Below are positions 15,847 through 25,150 of a stretch of DNA of 51,560 nucleotides, piece after piece. A program made the translations under genes and the position numbers. How positions within the stretch are numbered: position 1 is the stretch's first letter; each line of letters opens with the position of its first letter. The DNA is taken from the IMG/VR virus record IMGVR_UViG_2537561778_000008. The stretch is one strand, 5' to 3'. This DNA is from a virus. Taxonomy: Duplodnaviria > Heunggongvirae > Uroviricota > Caudoviricetes. The notes under the pieces are model-generated. The model was not told the origin of the DNA, did no database searches, and saw only the letters and a program-made list of their open reading frames with translations.

Positions 15847-16353
15847 TTGAGTATTTTCAATAAACACGCACACCAGGAACGTCCGTATATCGTCATAGTT
15901 GATATTGATGGAACAATATCAGAGGCAACTGAAGACAGACTGCATTTACTTCCGCCACCAGGTAAAGGTGCATTAACAAAGGACTGGAACGAGTTTAATC
16001 TCGCCTGTGACACCGATACTCCCATCACTCCAGTTATTGATATGGTGCGCCAGTTATTTAACGTTTACACGGTCTGGTTTGTAACCGGGCGCTGTGAGAT
16101 CGCAAGGGATAAAACACGAGCCTGGCTGCGGAAGTACGTAACAAACGGGGCTGAGCCTTTGCTATCTATGCGTCCTGCCACCGATGACAGAAATGACGGC
16201 CCAGCAAAGATTGATCTCCTTAAGAAAATTGGTCTAAGTAAAATCGCGTTCGCGCTGGAAGATAAGATTGAAGTGGCGCGTGTTTTCAGGAGGCACGGCG
16301 TGCTTACGTTAATGGTCAGGGAGTATGAAAATGCGCTTCTTCATCAACAATGA
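15847..16353 (+). CDS. HAD-superfamily phosphatase-like protein
   Basis: DxDGT motif (IVIVDIDGTIS); TTG start with GAGGAGGG SD; stop overlaps C1 operator. Confidence 0.45.
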   Translation: MSIFNKHAHQERPYIVIVDIDGTISEATEDRLHLLPPPGKGALTKDWNEFNLACDTDTPITPVIDMVRQLFNVYTVWFVTGRCEIARDKTRAWLRKYVTNGAEPLLSMRPATDDRNDGPAKIDLLKKIGLSKIAFALEDKIEVARVFRRHGVLTLMVREYENALLHQQ

Positions 16354-16369
16354 TTGCTCTAATAAATCT
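16353..16369 (+). promoter_or_regulatory. C1 operator-like site (ATTGCTCTAATAAATCT)
   Basis: 16/17 match to consensus. Confidence 0.5.
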
Positions 16370-16547: not shown

Positions 16548-17135
16548 ATGAAAGGCGAAGTGAAAGAGCGCGGCATGATTTTCAACGATGAGATGGTCCG
16601 GGCAATTCTTGGCGGGAATAAAACACAGACTCGCAGGATTGTTGAAGAAAAATTCTATGGACGGGCAGTGGCCGCAGAGTTGCTTGCCAAGCATTGTCCA
16701 TATGGTCAACCGGGCGATCGTATTTGGGTTCGCGAAACCTACCGGGTACATGGCAAAGCGACGGACGTCGCAACGCTGGTTTATCGCGCAAGCGTGCGTA
16801 ACTCCTGGACAGAACAAACGCACCGGGTTCCGGTCGAGGTTTGTAATAAACCAGTATCAGAAAAGTGGACGCCATCAATTCACATGCCGCGCTGGGCATC
16901 GCGCATTCTTCTGGAAATTACCAACGTGCGCGTTGAGCGGTTGAACGATATCAGCGAATGCGATGCAAGGGCTGAGGGCGCACCAACAGAATCGACCCTC
17001 ATTGGCGATAAGCATTACCCAGGTTTCCGTAGCCTATGGAAATCAATTTATGGCGAAGATAGTTGGAACGCTAATCCTTGGGTGTGGGTAATAGAGTTTG
17101 AGCGTATTCAGGGGGCAACCAGTGAGCGAAATTAA
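16548..17135 (+). CDS. Hypothetical phage protein (195 aa), possibly ASCH-like
   Basis: ATG start; intact ORF; family guess from memory only. Confidence 0.4.
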   Translation: MKGEVKERGMIFNDEMVRAILGGNKTQTRRIVEEKFYGRAVAAELLAKHCPYGQPGDRIWVRETYRVHGKATDVATLVYRASVRNSWTEQTHRVPVEVCNKPVSEKWTPSIHMPRWASRILLEITNVRVERLNDISECDARAEGAPTESTLIGDKHYPGFRSLWKSIYGEDSWNANPWVWVIEFERIQGATSERN

Positions 17136-17755: not shown

Positions 17756-18271
17756 ATGGCGTTAACACACCGCGAACTCTGTCAGATTGCGTACAAGTTC
17801 CTTAAGCGCAACGGGTTCAAGGTTTGTTTTCATGACCGCTTTATAGCTGTAACCAGTACCGGAGAACAGCCAGATGCTATGGGATTCAGAAATTCAGCAT
17901 CATGCCTGATAGAGGCGAAGTGTTCTCGTGCTGACTTGTTGGCAGATAGAAAAAAGCGTTTCCGTAAAAATCCCTCACTTGGCATGGGCGACTGGCGATT
18001 CTTTATTAGTGAGCCGGGAATTATTTCAGTTGAGGATTTACCTCCCGGCTGGGGATTACTTCACGTTGTTAACGGAAGAGTACGGAAAGTACATGGATGG
18101 CCCAAGGGGAATTGCTGTTGGGGTAACCCTGAAGATAAACCTTTTATTGGGAATAAGCAGGTTGAATGCGATTACATGTTATCTGCATTAAGGCGCATGG
18201 AGTTGAGAGGGCACCTTAATGAAATATATGACGGTGTAATTGTTAATAAGAAAGAAGGAAACGCGGCATGA
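17756..18271 (+). CDS. PD-(D/E)xK nuclease-fold protein (hypothetical)
   Basis: ATG 17756 with AAAGGAGAG SD; DAMGF...IEAKCSRADL fits D...E-x-K. Confidence 0.4.
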   Translation: MALTHRELCQIAYKFLKRNGFKVCFHDRFIAVTSTGEQPDAMGFRNSASCLIEAKCSRADLLADRKKRFRKNPSLGMGDWRFFISEPGIISVEDLPPGWGLLHVVNGRVRKVHGWPKGNCCWGNPEDKPFIGNKQVECDYMLSALRRMELRGHLNEIYDGVIVNKKEGNAA

Positions 18272-18984
18272 TCACTATTACCAAAGAGCGACTACTTACA
18301 ATCAAGCAGTGGCGCGAAACATACGGACCGGGTAGCAACGTTGTACTGCCAGCAGAAGAAGCAGAAGAACTGGCACGAATTGCGCTGGCATCGCTGGAAG
18401 CAGATCCAGTTGCTTATATTTTCAAACATCCGGCCGGGAAATTATTCTGGTCTTTAACGGATGAAAGCAATAAAGAGCAAGCGGACGTTATTCCTGTTTA
18501 TGCTGCCGCGCCTGCGTCGGTTGTGCCGGATAATGCATCAGAGCCTCTTGCTTATGCTTACAAAGAGCTTACGCCTGAGATTATGCGCAACCATTTAGCT
18601 GTATTCGAGCGATATGGAATAGCCCCAAACGATAGCTCTACCACAATTCAGGCACTGCGAATCGCGCTGGATGGCATAGAGCGGAGCGACGCCATGCTTC
18701 ATGGTGCCGAACCTGTAAGCCAAACTTACAAGTTGAACCAGCTATCGGGCAACTCTCCGGCAACTCCGGATGGTTGGATAAGCTGTAGTGAGCGAATGCC
18801 GAATACCAAAACAGCCGTTCTTGTTGCCGTGGAGTTTGACAGGAAAGGTGACTGGCGAATGAAATGGGCTACTTACATCCCCGGGCATCCTGACGCTAAT
18901 GATGGGTGGATAATTCCTGGTGCGTCGTGGAAACCGTCACACTGGATGCCGCTACCAGAACCGCCGCAGGAGGTGAATCAATGA
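18268..18984 (+). CDS. Hypothetical phage protein (238 aa), DUF551-like C-terminus
   Basis: ATG overlaps upstream stop; tryptophan-rich C-terminal region. Confidence 0.4.
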   Translation: MITITKERLLTIKQWRETYGPGSNVVLPAEEAEELARIALASLEADPVAYIFKHPAGKLFWSLTDESNKEQADVIPVYAAAPASVVPDNASEPLAYAYKELTPEIMRNHLAVFERYGIAPNDSSTTIQALRIALDGIERSDAMLHGAEPVSQTYKLNQLSGNSPATPDGWISCSERMPNTKTAVLVAVEFDRKGDWRMKWATYIPGHPDANDGWIIPGASWKPSHWMPLPEPPQEVNQ

Positions 18985-19064
18985 GCTGGCCTGAAGCATT
19001 CACCACGGTAGGAATTGTGATGGCGGCAGCACTGGGTTTGTATTCAATTTGTCGCTGGTGGTAA
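18981..19064 (+). CDS. Candidate hydrophobic micro-protein (27 aa)
   Basis: ATG overlaps upstream stop (ATGA); MSWPEAFTTVGIVMAAALGLYSICRWW. Confidence 0.25.
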   Translation: MSWPEAFTTVGIVMAAALGLYSICRWW

Positions 19065-19066
19065 CG

Positions 19067-19300
19067 ATGGGAAAAATAACTTTTGTAGTCGAATTTGAGG
19101 ATGGCAAAGAGCCACCTGTTAGCGCCAATCTTGATGTTGCTGGTGGCAGGCTGGTTTCGGTTCTATTTGGTGATTACCGCGACGACTTCTTTCAGCCTGA
19201 AGAAGTTGATGTAGTGCGAGAAGCATTAAACGAGCTAAGTGTTGATAACGATGATGCTCATGCGGAAATCATCAAAAAAATGGAACTGCTAACTCACTAA
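19067..19300 (+). CDS. Small acidic hypothetical protein (77 aa)
   Basis: ORF opens at TTG 19049; ATG 19067 follows a GGTGGT SD. Confidence 0.4.
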   Translation: MGKITFVVEFEDGKEPPVSANLDVAGGRLVSVLFGDYRDDFFQPEEVDVVREALNELSVDNDDAHAEIIKKMELLTH

Positions 19301-19348
19301 ATTATCAATTATGGTGCTATCACCTACGACACCGAGAGAAAATTTATA

Positions 19349-19471
19349 ATGTCAAAAGTAAATGTTTTGATTTTTTCAGCAATTGTTGGCTTTGGTTTTA
19401 CTGCCGGAGTGCAGATTTATATTGCGTGGGAAAAAATCATCAACTACGCATGGAGTTGTTTTATTAAGTGA
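19349..19471 (+). CDS. Candidate hydrophobic micro-protein (40 aa)
   Basis: MSKVNVLIFSAIVGFGFTAGVQIYIAWEKIINYAWSCFIK; AT-rich; immediately precedes next gene. Confidence 0.3.
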   Translation: MSKVNVLIFSAIVGFGFTAGVQIYIAWEKIINYAWSCFIK

Positions 19472-19478
19472 GGTAAGT

Positions 19479-19772
19479 ATGTGGAGAGGTAATAGTCATG
19501 GCAAAAGCCAGATGATACTTACCGAATATAAGCTAGACCACAAAACCAATAAATCACGCTCAGTATATTTGCTCCGGCACAATAGCCGCGTAAGAAATAC
19601 CGTGCTGGAACAAAATCTGACAGTTGAAATGGATAATTACGGTGGATTCAAGCCAACAATTTCGCTTGATGATTTTCCTCGTGGTTTAAGCGAAAGAGAA
19701 GCAATGCTGAAATTAGCAGAATGGCTACAAAGATTAAGCATTGCTATTGAAGATAACTGGTCTGAACCTTAA
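19479..19772 (+). CDS. Hypothetical protein (97 aa), AT-rich
   Basis: ATG 19479 in frame with TTG-initiated ORF 19383-19772. Confidence 0.4.
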   Translation: MWRGNSHGKSQMILTEYKLDHKTNKSRSVYLLRHNSRVRNTVLEQNLTVEMDNYGGFKPTISLDDFPRGLSEREAMLKLAEWLQRLSIAIEDNWSEP

Positions 19773-19778
19773 ATTTAT

Positions 19779-20105
19779 ATGATGACACTAAAACATTTTC
19801 TTGACCGCCCATTATGGGCGGCAGCCGCAGGCTATGACTTTAATTATATGGATTGCATGTCTTATACTGCCAATGCATACGACCATTCGTTCAGCCTGCT
19901 GTTTAATTCTTTAAGAATATTGCCGGAAACAGAAGTTGGAGAGCTTCATTTATGGATATTGGGCTTTATCGCGGCTGTCGTTGGTATTGCTGTATGGCCT
20001 TTTATTTTCTGGCTGGTGGCTGTTGTAGTGTGGTTTAAGTGCAAGACATACCGGAGAAAGTATTTCTTAGGTGATGGAATGACCGATATTGCCAAAATGA
20101 ACTAA
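19779..20105 (+). CDS. Hypothetical membrane protein (108 aa)
   Basis: Two hydrophobic segments (LHLWILGFIAAVVGIAVWPFIFWLVAVVVWF). Confidence 0.45.
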   Translation: MMTLKHFLDRPLWAAAAGYDFNYMDCMSYTANAYDHSFSLLFNSLRILPETEVGELHLWILGFIAAVVGIAVWPFIFWLVAVVVWFKCKTYRRKYFLGDGMTDIAKMN

Positions 20106-20120
20106 GGAATGTGAAAAGAA

Positions 20121-20780
20121 ATGGCGCAAAAAGAAATGACTACTCTAACGACAGCATACTTACAGCAATTGGTATTTTTTGCAGGCGAGGCTACTTGTCA
20201 TCCTGACGCAAACTATTTATTGGAATTTGAGAGGTTAGCGTCACCCGGTATCGTTCTGGAACTGGCCCAACAGGTGCTGGCCTTGAGACAAAAAGAGCAA
20301 CATGAAAGTAATACGTGTAGATTGAATTTTGAGCAGTGGCTGGAACAGCAACGCGGAAAAATCGATGTGGACTGTGGTTGTGTGTCCACTGAAACATTCA
20401 TGCACTGGCTGCGGGTAGCTTACGAGGCTGGCAACTATCCGGATATTCCGGATAGTTCGGTGCCAGCGCCAGGAAAGGGCGTCACCGGTGAACGTATCCG
20501 CATTAAGCCGCATGTTTATCGCGAACTGGTTAACCGTCTCCACGATACAGCGATCAAGTGTGCTGGCACCCAGCAATTACGAGAAAGAATTAGCCGTGTT
20601 TTGGGCGACGTTATTACGCCATATCATCATAAACAAGCCGAGAAAAGCGGTCTGGAAAGGTGTCATCTTGAGGCAGCATTAAACATTAAGCCGGGGCATA
20701 CGCTTGGCATTATTGATGCACTGTTGGTTCATAAGATGGCCAGGGCTTTATTGCCGCTGGTAGGGGGCAATGACAACTAG
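20121..20780 (+). CDS. Hypothetical protein (219 aa)
   Basis: ATG start, intact ORF, no motif recognised. Confidence 0.45.
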   Translation: MAQKEMTTLTTAYLQQLVFFAGEATCHPDANYLLEFERLASPGIVLELAQQVLALRQKEQHESNTCRLNFEQWLEQQRGKIDVDCGCVSTETFMHWLRVAYEAGNYPDIPDSSVPAPGKGVTGERIRIKPHVYRELVNRLHDTAIKCAGTQQLRERISRVLGDVITPYHHKQAEKSGLERCHLEAALNIKPGHTLGIIDALLVHKMARALLPLVGGNDN

Positions 20781-20864
20781 GAAAAAATCGCATTACTGGT
20801 GGCAAAGCCATAACTACTGATACAATATTTCTAGGTTAAAGATCTGGCATTAGGTAGAGATAGC

Positions 20865-21329
20865 ATGTTTCTTCATATCAATCCCGATTGGGCATCAGCT
20901 ATTGCGGCATTTGGGTCAGCAATAGCTGCTTTTATTAGTTTGCGCACAAGTAAAAATCTTGGATTATTCGATAAGGAAAAATTTTATAGTGAAGCATTGA
21001 TAAACTTTGCTGATAGGGCAAATAAAATAGCAACAGGAAAAGCTGGATCAGACTGGGATGTTAATGACGCAAGTAATATAATTCTTTCACTAAATGCCGC
21101 AAAAGAAACTATTGAAAGTGCGCCAAAACCTATTCGAGAGAAACTAAAACAATATTACAAACATAATCTTTGCCATGAGATCATAACTGAATTAGAGGCT
21201 CACTCTCCCCCAGATTCAGTAATTGTAAGAGAACCATCAGAGTATGAAGGCAAGATCATGGGATTGTGGGATGAGATTAAAATATTTCTGGGTTATACAG
21301 TGGTATCAGAAGCAGACCTTGAAGATTAA
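20865..21329 (+). CDS. Hypothetical protein (154 aa), AT-rich, N-terminal hydrophobic segment
   Basis: Lower GC than flanks; no UmuD-like motif (no S-x-K dyad or GDSM). Confidence 0.45.
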   Translation: MFLHINPDWASAIAAFGSAIAAFISLRTSKNLGLFDKEKFYSEALINFADRANKIATGKAGSDWDVNDASNIILSLNAAKETIESAPKPIREKLKQYYKHNLCHEIITELEAHSPPDSVIVREPSEYEGKIMGLWDEIKIFLGYTVVSEADLED

Positions 21330-21442
21330 AGTTTGGTGTGACCACATCATTTCATCAATGATGCCCGAAGTGGGGAGTTTGACGATTGTCCGGTGATTTA
21401 AGCTGCAAAGTGCTGGTGCTTTATGCTTGTGAAGTTTATAAT

Positions 21443-21465
21443 TGTGTACACATAACGAGTACACG
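21443..21465 (+). promoter_or_regulatory. phd-doc operator/promoter region with two GTGTACAC-type palindromes
   Basis: TGTGTACACATAACGAGTACAC directly upstream of phd; Phd/Doc autoregulation is known to use paired palindromic sites. Confidence 0.6.
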
Positions 21466-21473
21466 AGGTGTTT

Positions 21474-21695
21474 ATGCAATCCATTAACTTCCGTACCGCA
21501 CGCGGCAACCTTAGCGAAGTGCTCAATAATGTTGAAGCAGGGGAAGAGGTTGAAATCACCCGCAGAGGCCGTGAGCCAGCAGTAATTGTCAGCAAGGCTA
21601 CTTTTGAAACCTACAAAAAAGCGGCGCTGGATGCTGAATTTGCATCCCTGTTTGACACCCTGGACTCCACCAACAAGGAACTGGTTAACCGATAA
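21474..21695 (+). CDS. phd: Phd antitoxin (prevents host death)
   Basis: 73 aa [45 protein letters not shown]... matches P1 Phd as I recall it; stop overlaps doc start. Confidence 0.9.
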
Positions 21696-22075
21696 TGAGG
21701 CATATATCACCGGAAGAACTTATTGCGCTTCATGATGCGAATATAAACCGCTACGGCGGCCTGCCGGGAATGTCAGATCCGGGTAGGGCTGAGGCCATTA
21801 TCGGGAGAGTTCAGGCCAGAGTTGCCTACGAAGAGATCACCGACCTTTTCGAAGTCTCCGCCACCTACCTGGTGGCTACAGCGAGAGGGCATATATTCAA
21901 TGATGCCAATAAGCGTACCGCGCTAAACAGTGCGCTGCTATTTCTACGCCGTAACGGGGTGCAGGTATTTGATTCACCAGAACTGGCAGACCTTACCGTA
22001 GGGGCTGCGACCGGAGAGATATCTGTATCTACTGTCGCCGCCACGTTACGTAGATTGTATGGTTCTGCGGAGTAG
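21695..22075 (+). CDS. doc: Doc toxin (death on curing; Fic-fold kinase)
   Basis: 126 aa [17 protein letters not shown]... with HxFx(D/N)ANKR motif ([11 protein letters not shown]). Confidence 0.9.
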
Positions 22076-22079
22076 ATTA

Positions 22080-22259
22080 ATGGCACGTAAATACAACAAA
22101 TTGTCCCGTAGAGCGTTAAAGATGCTTCTTGATGGCGTGAGTCGCCGCGAGGTAAAGCAATACCTGGTTGGTAAGCAAATTGGTGCCAGGACCGCTATTG
22201 CTGTGTTATGCCGTCAGGAAATGGTTGTGCTTAAACAGAAAATGCCGGGCAGCAGATAA
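22080..22259 (+). CDS. Small basic protein downstream of doc (59 aa; pdcB-like position)
   Basis: ATG 22080 five nt after doc stop; lysine/arginine-rich. Confidence 0.35.
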   Translation: MARKYNKLSRRALKMLLDGVSRREVKQYLVGKQIGARTAIAVLCRQEMVVLKQKMPGSR

Positions 22260-22286
22260 AGCCAAATCAGTGATGAAAGGTGTGAT

Positions 22287-23330
22287 GTGAAAGCCGTAAT
22301 TACTCCCTTTGTACAAAAAGAGCTTGGCGTCGCCACATTCAAAGTGGATCAGGAAGTCAGAAAGCTGGTGGAGGCTGGCCGTAAATTTATTATGGAGCCG
22401 GTGCCGCGTGAGTTAATCGAGCACATGGACGACGGCCTCGTTGTTTCCGAGCAAACTATGGCAACAAATGAGGCGTTGCAGCCGTTTTTTAACAGCGATG
22501 AACTGTTTCGCCGTATTGGTGGAATTGACGCGCTGGTGGCGTGGTTGCGCAGGAAAGAGGGGCAATGCCAGGCCGCAGATCGTAGCTGGTGTGACAACCA
22601 TATTGTCCACGCTGAACGAGACAACAGCGCGGTGTTGTTGTGCTGGCATCACGATAATCATTACCGGATGCGTGGTTTTAATGAGCTGAAAGAAACGCTG
22701 CATAATAATCGCGTTAACTGGATACTGGATGTCGCTCGTCAGGAAATGGGCCTTTCTGATGGTCATGATTTAAGTATTCAGGAGCTGTGCTGGTGGGCTT
22801 TCATGCGCAACATGATCCACCTCATGCCGGAAGAAGTCTGCCGTATATCAATAAATAAGGTGAGGGCTGCAACGCAGGATAGCGGACCTCTGAAAGAGGC
22901 GGATATTCGCCCGTATGACGATCGCGCTACAGCATATGTTCAGATGATGGAAGAACGCGCCGCGCCGATGCGTGCAAAAGTATGCCCTGTGGATGTTGAC
23001 TCCGACCCTGGCATGGCGCATTTCAAAATACCAAAACTGCAATCGCTAAAATTACCTGAGTACATGGACTTTGTTGCTTCCCGTCCATGCTGTGGGTGTG
23101 GAGCTGCGGGAGCTGGCGCTCACATTACGCCTTATATCGTTCGTCATAGTCGATTATGCGCGCATGACATTTACGCAATTCCTCTGTGCCAGTCATGCCA
23201 GCGTGATATTGAGCGTGACCGCGATAATTGGGAGAAGACGCACGGCAGGCTGGCGATGCATCAACGATTGTTCTTTGATTACGCGCTTGGAGTCGGCGTT
23301 ATCACAAGTCACTCGTCGAGCGTTAGATAA
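22287..23330 (+). CDS. Hypothetical cysteine-rich protein (347 aa; pdcA-like position)
   Basis: GTG start; C-terminal [12 protein letters not shown]...[14 protein letters not shown] cluster. Confidence 0.45.
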
Positions 23331-23331
23331 A

Positions 23332-23348
23332 ATTGCTCTAATGTATTG
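23332..23348 (+). promoter_or_regulatory. C1 operator-like site (ATTGCTCTAATGTATTG) upstream of the lpa-position gene
   Basis: 11/17 contiguous match; P1 lpa is known to be C1-controlled. Confidence 0.4.
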
Positions 23349-23418
23349 CTATTTATTTAATCGAGGGTATTATATTCGTCGTTGATTAGTTGACATGGGC
23401 TAATCAGTAGGTGACAGG

Positions 23419-23871
23419 ATGTTACTTAACTGGCAGGGACGCCACTTCATGGAAATAAATCACTCACGAATTACATCGTATGAGATTGCGGATTACATGA
23501 TCCGCACTAAATCTCTTCTATCAGCGAAAGAACTCGCAGCAATTCTTGAAAAGGAATACCCGCATCTGGATGTCGATAAGCGCGATGTTTATCTGCGCTT
23601 AAAGGCTATCGCTGTGTCTAAGTATTCGTCTGTTTTGATTGATGACAGTACACGCCCACGTAGATTTCAGATCCACTCTCTGAATCCTGAATTCTTTCGC
23701 CGTAGCCGCGCTCCGCGCCGGTTTGATGAAAAACTCCAGAACGAACTCTATATGACGCAGGACGAAAAGGAACGCCGGGAGCACCAGCCTTGGGTAATGG
23801 CGCGTCAACTTTTCAATAAGGTGGTCCGTCAGCACCGTCATTACGGTAATGCCACATCCGCACGTATCTGA
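23419..23871 (+). CDS. lpa: Late promoter activator candidate (P1 Lpa / gene 10 position)
   Basis: 150-codon ORF directly upstream of pacA, preceded by operator-like site; assigned by synteny only. Confidence 0.5.
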   Translation: MLLNWQGRHFMEINHSRITSYEIADYMIRTKSLLSAKELAAILEKEYPHLDVDKRDVYLRLKAIAVSKYSSVLIDDSTRPRRFQIHSLNPEFFRRSRAPRRFDEKLQNELYMTQDEKERREHQPWVMARQLFNKVVRQHRHYGNATSARI

Positions 23872-23956
23872 TTGATTGCTTGCCCGTTCCGGGCCTTTTG
23901 ACATGTGACTTTCGTTACCCTCGCGTCAAAAAGAGTTTTTACGAAAGGAAGCATAA

Positions 23957-25150
23957 GTGACCTGGGACGATCACAAAAAGAATTTTGCTCGCCTGGCGCG
24001 AGATGGTGGTTACACCATCGCACAGTATGCCGCCGAGTTTAATCTTAACCCTAATACCGCACGTCGTTATCTCCGTGCCTTCAAAGAAGACACCAGGACT
24101 GCGGACAGCCGCAAGCCAAATAAGCCAGTCAGGAAGCCACTAAAAAGCATGATCATTGATCACTCTAATGATCAACATGCAGGTGATCATATTGCGGCTG
24201 AAATAGCGGAAAAACAGAGAGTTAATGCCGTTGTCAGTGCCGCAGTCGAGAATGCGAAGCGCCAAAATAAGCGCATAAATGATCGTTCAGATGATCATGA
24301 CGTGATCACCCGCGCCCACCGGACCTTACGTGATCGCCTGGAACGCGACACCCTGGATGATGATGGTGAACGCTTTGAATTCGAAGCTGGCGATTACCTG
24401 ATAGATAACGTTGAAGCGCGGAAGGCCGCGCGCGCTATGTTGCGTCGGTCCGGGGCCGATGTTCTGGAAACCACTCTTCTTGAAAAGTCTCTTTCTCATC
24501 TCCTTATGCTGGAGAACGCCAGGGATACGTGTATTCGCCTGGTGCAGGAAATGCGCGATCAGCAAAAAGCCGATGATGAAGGTACTCCGCCTGAATACCG
24601 TATCGCGAGCATGCTAAACAGCTGTTCCGCGCAGATAAGCAGTCTGATCAACACCATTTACAGCATCCGGAATAACTATCGAAAAGAAAGCCGGGAGGCG
24701 GAAAAGCACGCTTTGTCTATGGGGCAAGCTGGCATTGTTAAGCTGGCATACGAACGAAAGCGTGAAAATAACTGGTCAGTGCTGGAAGCAGCTGAATTCA
24801 TCGAGGCGCATGGCGGGAAAGTGCCGCCCCTGATGCTGGAGCAAATCAAAGCCGATCTGCGTGCTCCTAAGACCAATACCGATGATGAGGAAAGGCAAAC
24901 TGCCGTCGGTGGCCCTTCTCTTGAAGATCTGGACAAAGTTGCGCGAGAACGGGCCGCCAACCGCCGCGCCGATGCCGCATTGTGGATTGAGCAACGTAGG
25001 GAAGAAATCGCCGATATCGTTGATACAGGCGGTTATGGAGATGTTGATACTGAAGGTGTATCAAACGACCCATGGCTGGAACAAGACCTGGACGAAGACG
25101 AGGAGGAAGACGAAGAAGTTACCCGCAAGCTATACGGGGATGATGATTAA
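23957..25150 (+). CDS. pacA: Pacase small subunit PacA
   Basis: 397 aa, GTG start; contains the pac site; acidic C-terminus ([11 protein letters not shown]). Confidence 0.85.
24149..24308 (+). other. pac packaging site: seven GATC-containing hexamers in two clusters
   Basis: GATC at 24151, 24158, 24170, 24185 and 24281, 24293, 24304 (TGATCA/G type) within about 160 bp inside pacA. Confidence 0.75.

Follow-up and report, generated by a model that had tools for sequence, protein, structure and literature searches.

A single-gene cassette beside phd–doc in a P1-like phage-plasmid, in place of the hot–lxr–humD block

Which gene stands next to the phd–doc antitoxin–toxin pair of a P1-like phage-plasmid when humD does not, how did it come to be there, and what might it do? 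These questions are raised by a 51,560-nt stretch of viral DNA (IMG/VR record IMGVR_UViG_2537561778_000008; 'the window' throughout means this whole stretch), a P1-like (Punavirus) phage-plasmid in which ~74% of positions 18000–24000 aligns to P1-like phages at ~97% identity. The interval 20781–21473, which runs from the stop of an upstream open reading frame (ORF) of 219 amino acids (aa) to the start of phd, holds a 154-aa ORF, here called ORF154, together with non-coding flanks. A sequence-only reading of the window had described this ORF as AT-rich, with a hydrophobic N-terminal stretch and nothing UmuD-like about it, and, taking the P1 order to be humD–phd–doc, had proposed that a cargo gene had replaced the SOS gene humD at a known hotspot for accessory genes. 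The comparisons below bear out this account and enlarge it. Base composition sets the gene apart as claimed, with a GC content of 0.363 in ORF154 compared to 0.470 in the 3 kb on each side and 0.472 in the whole window.

The replaced block left of phd–doc

The P1 genome (NC_005856) has the gene order assumed there, with humD at 87584–87973, phd at 88046–88267 and doc at 88267–88647 in the series hot, lxr (on the reverse strand), LexA box, humD, Pphd, phd and doc. By blastn, window 20420–20761 corresponds to P1 85182–85523, which covers the 3′ end of pmgT and most of pmgU, and window 21332–24000 corresponds to P1 87905–90572. Between these two homologous segments, 570 bp of the window (20762–21331) stand in place of 2381 bp of P1 (85524–87904). 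Identical breakpoints, 20761/20762 and 21331/21332, are found against MH422554, a closer relative that also shares window 19473–20761. The 570-bp cassette opens with the final 6 codons and stop of the 219-aa ORF, continues through an 84-bp spacer into ORF154 and closes with 2 extra bases (Table 1), and the P1 stretch that it replaces comprises the 3′ end of pmgU, pmgV, upfM/N/O, hot, lxr, the LexA box and codons 1–107 of humD (its first 321 bp). Much more than humD has therefore been exchanged, which refines the earlier proposal. A tblastn search of the whole window found no match to pmgV, upfMNO, hot, lxr or the body of humD, with HumD residues 113–129 as the sole exception.

That exception is a remnant of the 3′ end of humD directly after the cassette. 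HumD residues 113–129 and the stop codon are readable at 21348–21401 (tblastn, 94% identity over 17 residues, 21348–21398), and a 1-nt insertion relative to P1 lies within 21332–21347 (TGACCACATCATTTC versus TGATCACTCATGTC). Because this insertion leaves only the last 17 codons in the HumD frame, the alignment confirms that the remnant is non-functional. Its presence is direct evidence that an ancestor of the window element carried humD, which was later replaced or deleted. Beyond the remnant, Pphd, phd and doc are all intact, the palindromic GTGTACAC and GAGTACAC sites upstream of phd, which we take to be the Phd operator, are retained, and pdcA, pdcB, lpa and pacA follow doc in the same order as in P1. 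We are all but certain that the cassette was swapped for the pmgV–upfMNO–hot–lxr–humD block. The element has lost at this locus the LexA box between lxr and humD, the UmuD′-like HumD and the theta-like Hot. Taken alone, the event is a routine, ordinary case of mosaic exchange within a region whose variability is already documented; what it adds is that some P1-like phage-plasmids have given up the block holding the lxr/humD LexA box, HumD and Hot.

Table 1. Coordinates of the features at and around the cassette. Positions are those of the window except in the last row, where they refer to contigs carrying homologues of ORF154 (labels beginning with L).
Feature	Position	Strand	Basis and remarks
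Replacement cassette, 570 bp	20762..21331	+	blastn homology breaks against P1 and MH422554
ORF154	20865..21329	+	ATG start; 154 aa; member of PHROG family 1779
Predicted single transmembrane helix, codons 9–26	20889..20942	+	Hydropathy and flanking charge across the family
Sigma-70 promoter-like site	20799..20826	+	GTGGCA, 16-nt spacer, TACAAT; TG before the −10; 39 nt upstream of the ORF154 start
humD 3′-end remnant	21332..21401	+	Aligns to P1 87905–87973; frameshifted
Pphd promoter	21414..21442	+	−35 TGGTGC, −10 TATAAT; transferred from the P1 annotation by alignment, 1 mismatch in 29 nt
phd antitoxin gene	21474..21695	+	Pfam PF02604 (PhdYeFM_antitox), E 1.3e-12; protein 98.6% identical to P1 Phd
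doc toxin gene	21695..22075	+	Pfam PF02661 (Fic/DOC), E 1.9e-09; protein 97.6% identical to P1 Doc
Upstream 219-aa ORF	20121..20780	+	Left border of the cassette; C-terminal 108 residues PmgU-like; phrog_21459
C1 operator	16353..16369	+	1 mismatch to consensus; head of an operon running towards ORF154; positional counterpart of P1 OpmgT/Op88
hot-like remnants	L005:7907-7975 (also L006–L008 and L013–L015 at 7907-7975); L009/L010:7771-7963; L016:7756-7848		

The cassette is rare and has been found on plasmids. It is present at full length and 98.9–100% identity in 9 PLSDB plasmids from E. coli, E. marmotae and E. albertii, all of them non-mobilizable and ~93–99 kb in size, and in 10 of the 5426 complete E. 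coli genomes in RefSeq, plasmid-borne every time; each carrier annotates the gene as 'hypothetical protein'. By comparison, the 5′ part of humD, which is absent from the window, occurs in 646 PLSDB plasmids and phd–doc in 1246. The cassette is absent from P1, from P7 and from all 50,697 phage records, among which positions 1–551 of the query 20781–21473 remained unmatched, which answers the earlier concern that P1 might carry the same gene. The junctions and the humD remnant are identical in the copies from E. coli (S51), E. albertii and E. marmotae despite different left-hand neighbours, a pattern that suggests a single acquisition, with spread and further recombination afterwards. Comparisons of ORF154 between these Escherichia species each show 5 differences in the coding sequence (3 non-synonymous and 2 synonymous in one, 4 and 1 in the other), too few for a ratio of non-synonymous to synonymous rates (dN/dS).

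Comparative work on P1-like elements places the exchange at a locus already noted for its variability, in agreement with the claim that this is an accessory hotspot. The segment from pmgT to humD is highly variable region 8 of P1-like phage-plasmids (PMC9603915), and pap–lxr is 'RD-5' (PMC6906374); in the parts of these two papers available to us, the region is described as low in GC and highly variable among P1-like elements, and those parts make no mention of the cassette allele. In a P1 CRISPR interference (CRISPRi) screen, pmgT through doc scored as non-essential for lytic growth, except for upfM, which was not in the screen (PMC10695390). The window locus coincides with region 8/RD-5 and is bounded in the same way by the conserved pmgS/pap side and phd–doc, but its whole distal half, from pmgV to humD codon 107, has given way to a single unrelated gene, with loss of the LexA-regulated functions.

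A different occupant of the same left border is found in the P1-like phages phi456 and vB_EcoM-673R5, where type I restriction–modification (hsd) genes abut phd (phi456 locus L011:3338-5076; 673R5 locus L012:1-5076). Their homology to the window starts only at ~21398, the humD stop codon, and the P1 record notes that the EcoDXXI and R124/3 hsd loci are flanked by sequences nearly identical to this border. At the phi456/673R5-type junction, the adjoining 700 bp of hsdM-side sequence recur in 974 PLSDB plasmids, conjugative ones included, a count that does not take in adjacency to phd. The hsd cassettes abutting phd–doc are alternative cargo at the same left border of Pphd–phd–doc, although they differ from the window cassette in their breakpoint (at the humD stop, ~21398, as opposed to 21332) and in being multi-gene, of known function and on the opposite strand, whereas the window has a single uncharacterised gene on the same strand. 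These comparisons show the border to be a recurrent recombination point able to hold defence genes. ORF154 represents a third type of cargo at the left of P1 phd–doc, beside the hot–lxr–humD block and type I restriction–modification, and one previously undescribed as far as the available parts of the comparative papers extend.

A PHROG family with a predicted membrane helix

ORF154 aligns over its full length with the profile hidden Markov model (HMM) of phrog_1779 (E 1.5e-62; 211.5 bits; residues 1–154 on profile positions 1–169 of 169), a family annotated as 'unknown function'. In a word-indexed search of 5.8 billion proteins its own 90% cluster was the sole match; an exhaustive phmmer search of 1.84 billion representatives yielded 21 proteins at E ≤ 0.001, almost all of 153–175 aa, and a profile search yielded 17 clusters, for which the source names are only 'hypothetical protein' (Cronobacter sakazakii, Serratia marcescens and E. 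coli). Because the family match is end to end and the 21 diverged homologues have similar lengths and conserved columns, ORF154 is a real gene and did not arise as a chance reading frame. Length and invariant columns are kept down to ~27% identity across several genera. The invariant residues are A22, S25 and W64, near-invariant positions include L45, A49, N53, A79, L102, P116 and F141, and about two-thirds of the members have a C-terminal D-x-D-L-x-D; the family alignment has no conserved His, Cys, Ser or acidic constellation suggestive of catalysis. Within the family, the window protein forms the shortest and most AT-rich branch, with ~7 residues fewer after the membrane helix, and no other branch was found on a P1-like plasmid, the rest lying in integrated lambdoid prophages.

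Searches of Pfam, NCBIfam and PADLOC gave no consistent match for ORF154 or for all 29 aligned members, with scattered sub-threshold hits only, and the PADLOC-DB 2.0 defence HMMs gave no family at E ≤ 1 for ORF154 or its five upstream neighbours. One weak match to SLATT_1 (E 0.012, in one member), which covers the hydrophobic helix, was discarded, as the other members are without it. A sequence search of the Protein Data Bank (PDB) with ORF154 returned no match.

The N-terminal hydrophobic stretch that had been pointed out is real by hydropathy. It spans residues 8–26 (DWASAIAAFGSAIAAFISL), with a Kyte–Doolittle mean of 1.49 over 19 residues (~1.8 by hand count for W9–L26), and the hydropathy scan shows no second hydrophobic segment in ORF154. 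Each full-length member of the family has exactly one such segment near its N terminus, with 19-residue means of 1.5–2.6; the mean is at least 1.6 in 26 of 28 full-length members and 1.49 in the window protein. The N-terminal flank is without Lys or Arg in 25 of the 28 and usually net negative, and 2–5 Lys or Arg residues lie within the 15 positions after the segment. Because of these flanking charges, the positive-inside rule predicts a single-pass inner-membrane protein in an N-out/C-in orientation, with a short acidic N-terminal tail outside and the remainder in the cytoplasm. The lack of a basic n-region speaks against a Sec signal peptide.

No other part of the protein is conserved as well as this helix. 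Its positions 11, 14, 15, 17, 18, 19, 21, 22 and 25 are 100% Gly, Ala, Ser, Thr or Cys, and the small residues make three interleaved small-xxx-small ladders. Patterns of this kind (GxxxG, glycine zipper) go with tight packing of transmembrane helices. Because this small-residue face is invariant and carries such ladders, we infer that the helix may be an interaction surface, not a passive anchor.

A single-sequence AlphaFold2 (AF2) model was unusable, with a predicted local distance difference test (pLDDT) score of 43, and we used a model based on the 29-sequence alignment (pLDDT 82.3, predicted template modelling score 0.72). It is all-alpha, with a low-confidence N-terminal helix at residues 8–28 followed by a confident bundle of helices 34–56, 66–85, 88–101, 104–111 and 126–142. 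Fold searches gave no informative match. The soluble part of the window protein is acidic (isoelectric point (pI) 4.8, net charge −9; family median pI 5.1), and the cytoplasmic part is predicted from the model to be an acidic bundle of 5–6 helices and ~125 aa, without conserved catalytic-type residues. That the family is real and anchored in the membrane seems to us likely.

Outside P1-like plasmids, each homologue context that we retrieved is a lambdoid prophage or phage. In E. coli PhiR26_1 and PhiR5_1 the homologue lies between rha and ninB, in the ren–ninB slot; in PhiR26_1, for which we found no paper in the literature, PD-lambda-1 is two genes away. A 169-aa E. coli lambdoid paralogue, ~35% identical to ORF154 (L003:4899-5408; L020:7001-7510), was found in 3.3% of complete E. 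coli genomes (181 of 5426) and is chromosomal in all of them, O104:H4 included, where it sits in the same ren–ninB slot among decayed or pseudogenised accessory genes. In Cronobacter and Serratia prophages the homologue comes last in the early-left operon, with cIII, kil and recT ahead of it and xis/int beyond, and contig L016 carries it in a nin region near dinI, rusA and a DUF968 gene. In all contexts the gene is co-oriented with the surrounding early operon, and its GC content is below that of the flanks in 5 of 6 distinct contexts checked (4 of the 5 distinct homologue contexts). Terminator-like hairpins lie 3′ of the homologues in a Cronobacter context (L005), a Serratia context (L009) and L016. 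The one candidate for a conserved partner, a 77-aa ORF upstream in Cronobacter prophages, was not found in other contexts; we therefore treat the family as a single-gene unit. These searches delineate a small, sharply conserved and uncharacterised family confined to accessory slots of temperate phages.

A truncated or frameshifted gene resembling hot/holE (DNA polymerase III theta) lies 25–150 nt upstream of the homologue in Cronobacter, in Serratia and in L016 (Table 1). In L005 and L016, two unrelated prophages, similarity to P1 Hot ends at one shared position, following DLAA[S/A]G; neither the window cassette nor the sequence next to the E. coli lambdoid copies contains a hot remnant. The most economical explanation is that conserved stretches of hot act as the recombination anchor of this accessory slot, and it fits a possible lambdoid origin of the cassette carried by the P1-like plasmids.

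Possible roles of ORF154

What might such a protein do for the element that carries it? We tentatively favour a role for ORF154 as a phage conflict protein, with superinfection exclusion or abortive infection as the most likely form, because the family is found only in accessory slots of temperate enterobacterial phages (lambdoid ren–ninB, the distal early-left operon near int, and the P1 variable region) that are shared with restriction–modification and PD-lambda-1. The product would be a non-enzymatic, membrane-acting accessory factor in phage–phage or phage–host conflict, and it might act through oligomerization of its membrane helix or by binding an inner-membrane host protein. Lambda SieB and RexB and HK97 gp15 are single-gene membrane exclusion proteins. 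ORF154 resembles these lambdoid morons and exclusion proteins as a small, AT-rich extra gene for a predicted small membrane protein in prophage accessory slots, but it has no sequence or profile similarity to SieB or RexB (hhalign probability ≤0.1% each). Measured against the moron in the sense of Hendrix and colleagues, the sharp boundaries, the presence or absence between collinear relatives (9 plasmids compared to 646 with humD) and the base composition (GC 0.363 versus 0.470 in the flanks) agree, and the earlier label 'cargo gene' is fair as a description. The window copy departs from the type in having no terminator of its own, whereas the homologues in L005, L009 and L016 have one.

An account that joins the replacement, the predicted membrane protein and the conflict role is the best overall explanation we can offer, and we put it forward with reserve. 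A bolder version, which we regard as speculative and rather doubtful, would make PHROG 1779 a new single-gene, membrane-embedded anti-phage module of temperate enterobacterial phages, in which the small-residue helix would be the effector, through oligomerization or by obstructing an entry factor in the inner membrane, with the acidic bundle as its sensor or regulator, and the gene would move between lambdoid prophages and P1-like plasmids by recombination at hot/humD-type loci. For a screen of defence or exclusion functions, the family is a reasonable candidate and an inexpensive one.

Several observations count against the conflict reading. Rich in Ala, the hydrophobic helix is of only moderate hydrophobicity, and its pLDDT in the AF2 model is a low 47–59, so membrane insertion is a prediction. 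The one sigma-70-like extended −10 site before the gene (20799–20826) is the only such site in 1.3 kb, where shuffled sequences give a mean of 2.9, and by itself it is not significant; no promoter-like site was found upstream of the Cronobacter (L005) or Serratia (L009) homologues. We found no terminator-like site between 21329 and phd, and none separates ORF154 from Pphd. Finally, the window copy lies downstream of a C1-controlled operon and is co-oriented with the early operon, which, like the promoter results, fits expression in the lytic cycle equally well. The operator at the head of that operon is one of 12 sites found by a C1 operator pattern search in which 0.35 were expected; another is at 23332 (Olpa). 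The same kind of search found no C1 operator or LexA box in 20762–21473. Transcription of ORF154 could be constitutive, could come with the C1-controlled upstream operon, or both.

Expression with that operon would suit an early-lytic function, in which the protein, made after derepression, would act on a host inner-membrane target (cell division, transport or a membrane-bound defence) and favour the phage's own lytic growth; lambda Kil and other accessory genes of the early-left and nin regions are models for such host takeover. The unfailing co-orientation with the early operon, the lack of a consistent promoter of its own, the C1 operator upstream in the window and the placement of the Cronobacter and Serratia copies in the distal PL operon with cIII, kil and recT all suit this role, yet the terminator directly after several homologues and the lower GC content fit an independently expressed moron just as well, and the alternative cargo in the same slots is defensive (restriction–modification, PD-lambda-1). 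We consider a takeover or anti-defence factor only slightly less likely than the conflict role. Improbable, by contrast, is a selectively neutral cassette that brings this element no benefit and was fixed when chance illegitimate recombination removed dispensable genes. The allele is indeed rare (9 versus 646 plasmids), the few differences between Escherichia variants are mostly non-synonymous (3:2 and 4:1) and the replaced genes are non-essential (PMC10695390), but plasmids of E. coli, E. albertii and E. marmotae with different left-hand neighbours all keep the ORF intact, and the retention of length and invariant columns to ~27% identity in several genera calls for purifying selection on the protein.

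Functions suggested by the displaced genes fare worse. A replisome- or SOS-linked role tied to Hot, with ORF154 as a partner or substitute for the displaced hot–lxr–humD, draws on the homologues that lie 25–150 nt downstream of a damaged hot-like gene (Cronobacter, Serratia, L016), on the presence of hot in the P1 block displaced in the window, and on the D-x-D-L-x-D tail, which loosely recalls the acidic tails through which SSB recruits its partners. The adjoining hot copies are, however, remnants and not working genes, which points to a shared recombination site instead of cooperation; the window shows no hot remnant, nor do the surroundings of the E. coli lambdoid homologues, a membrane anchor would be unexpected in a replisome factor, and the protein has no similarity to Lxr or PmgV (hhalign against each of these displaced P1 genes, probability ~0.1%). 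We judge this role highly improbable. What recommends ORF154 as a divergent UmuD/HumD homologue, or as an extra component of the phd–doc module, is its position, in the place of humD and abutting Pphd, and we reject both as far as sequence and predicted fold can tell. In agreement with the earlier reading, which had seen no UmuD-like character, Pfam gave no peptidase S24 match (PF00717) at E ≤ 1 and BLASTP against P1 HumD gave E 4.9 over 6 residues. UmuD′ has a beta-rich S24 (LexA-like) fold, whereas the AF2 model of ORF154 is all-alpha; a separate humD remnant adjoins the gene, and no homologue retrieved outside P1-like plasmids adjoins a phd–doc pair.

Neighbouring sequences

The left border of the cassette is PmgU-like. 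P1 PmgU residues 1–108 match window 20460–20783 at 90% identity (tblastn), and the PmgU-like C-terminal half of the 219-aa ORF at 20121–20780 lies in an overlapping frame. Further upstream, P1 PmgT residues 1–232 match window 16548–17084 (47%) and residues 232–307 match 20419–20646 (92%); because these two matches are ~3.4 kb apart in the window, P1 pmgT looks like a deletion fusion relative to the window element.

Two other stretches between these matches differ in character from the surrounding backbone. Window 18000–18978 is 96–98.5% identical to many Shiga toxin (Stx)-converting lambdoid phages (ead/Ea22-like and DUF551 genes), within an otherwise P1-like backbone, which indicates that P1-like plasmids and lambdoid prophages have exchanged DNA a short way upstream of the ORF154 locus. 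A second AT-rich patch, 19100–20150, has a GC content of 0.36–0.42 and small ORFs without assigned function, two of which have hydrophobic segments (19349–19471, 40 aa; 19779–20105, 108 aa, phrog_2638).

On the other side of the locus, the E. marmotae cassette plasmid is without pdcA/pdcB after doc and has reverse-strand genes there instead (L019:4350-6570), and the E. albertii cassette plasmid has a TnpB gene after lpa (L018:6168-6570). Going by these differences, the right side of phd–doc is also variable.

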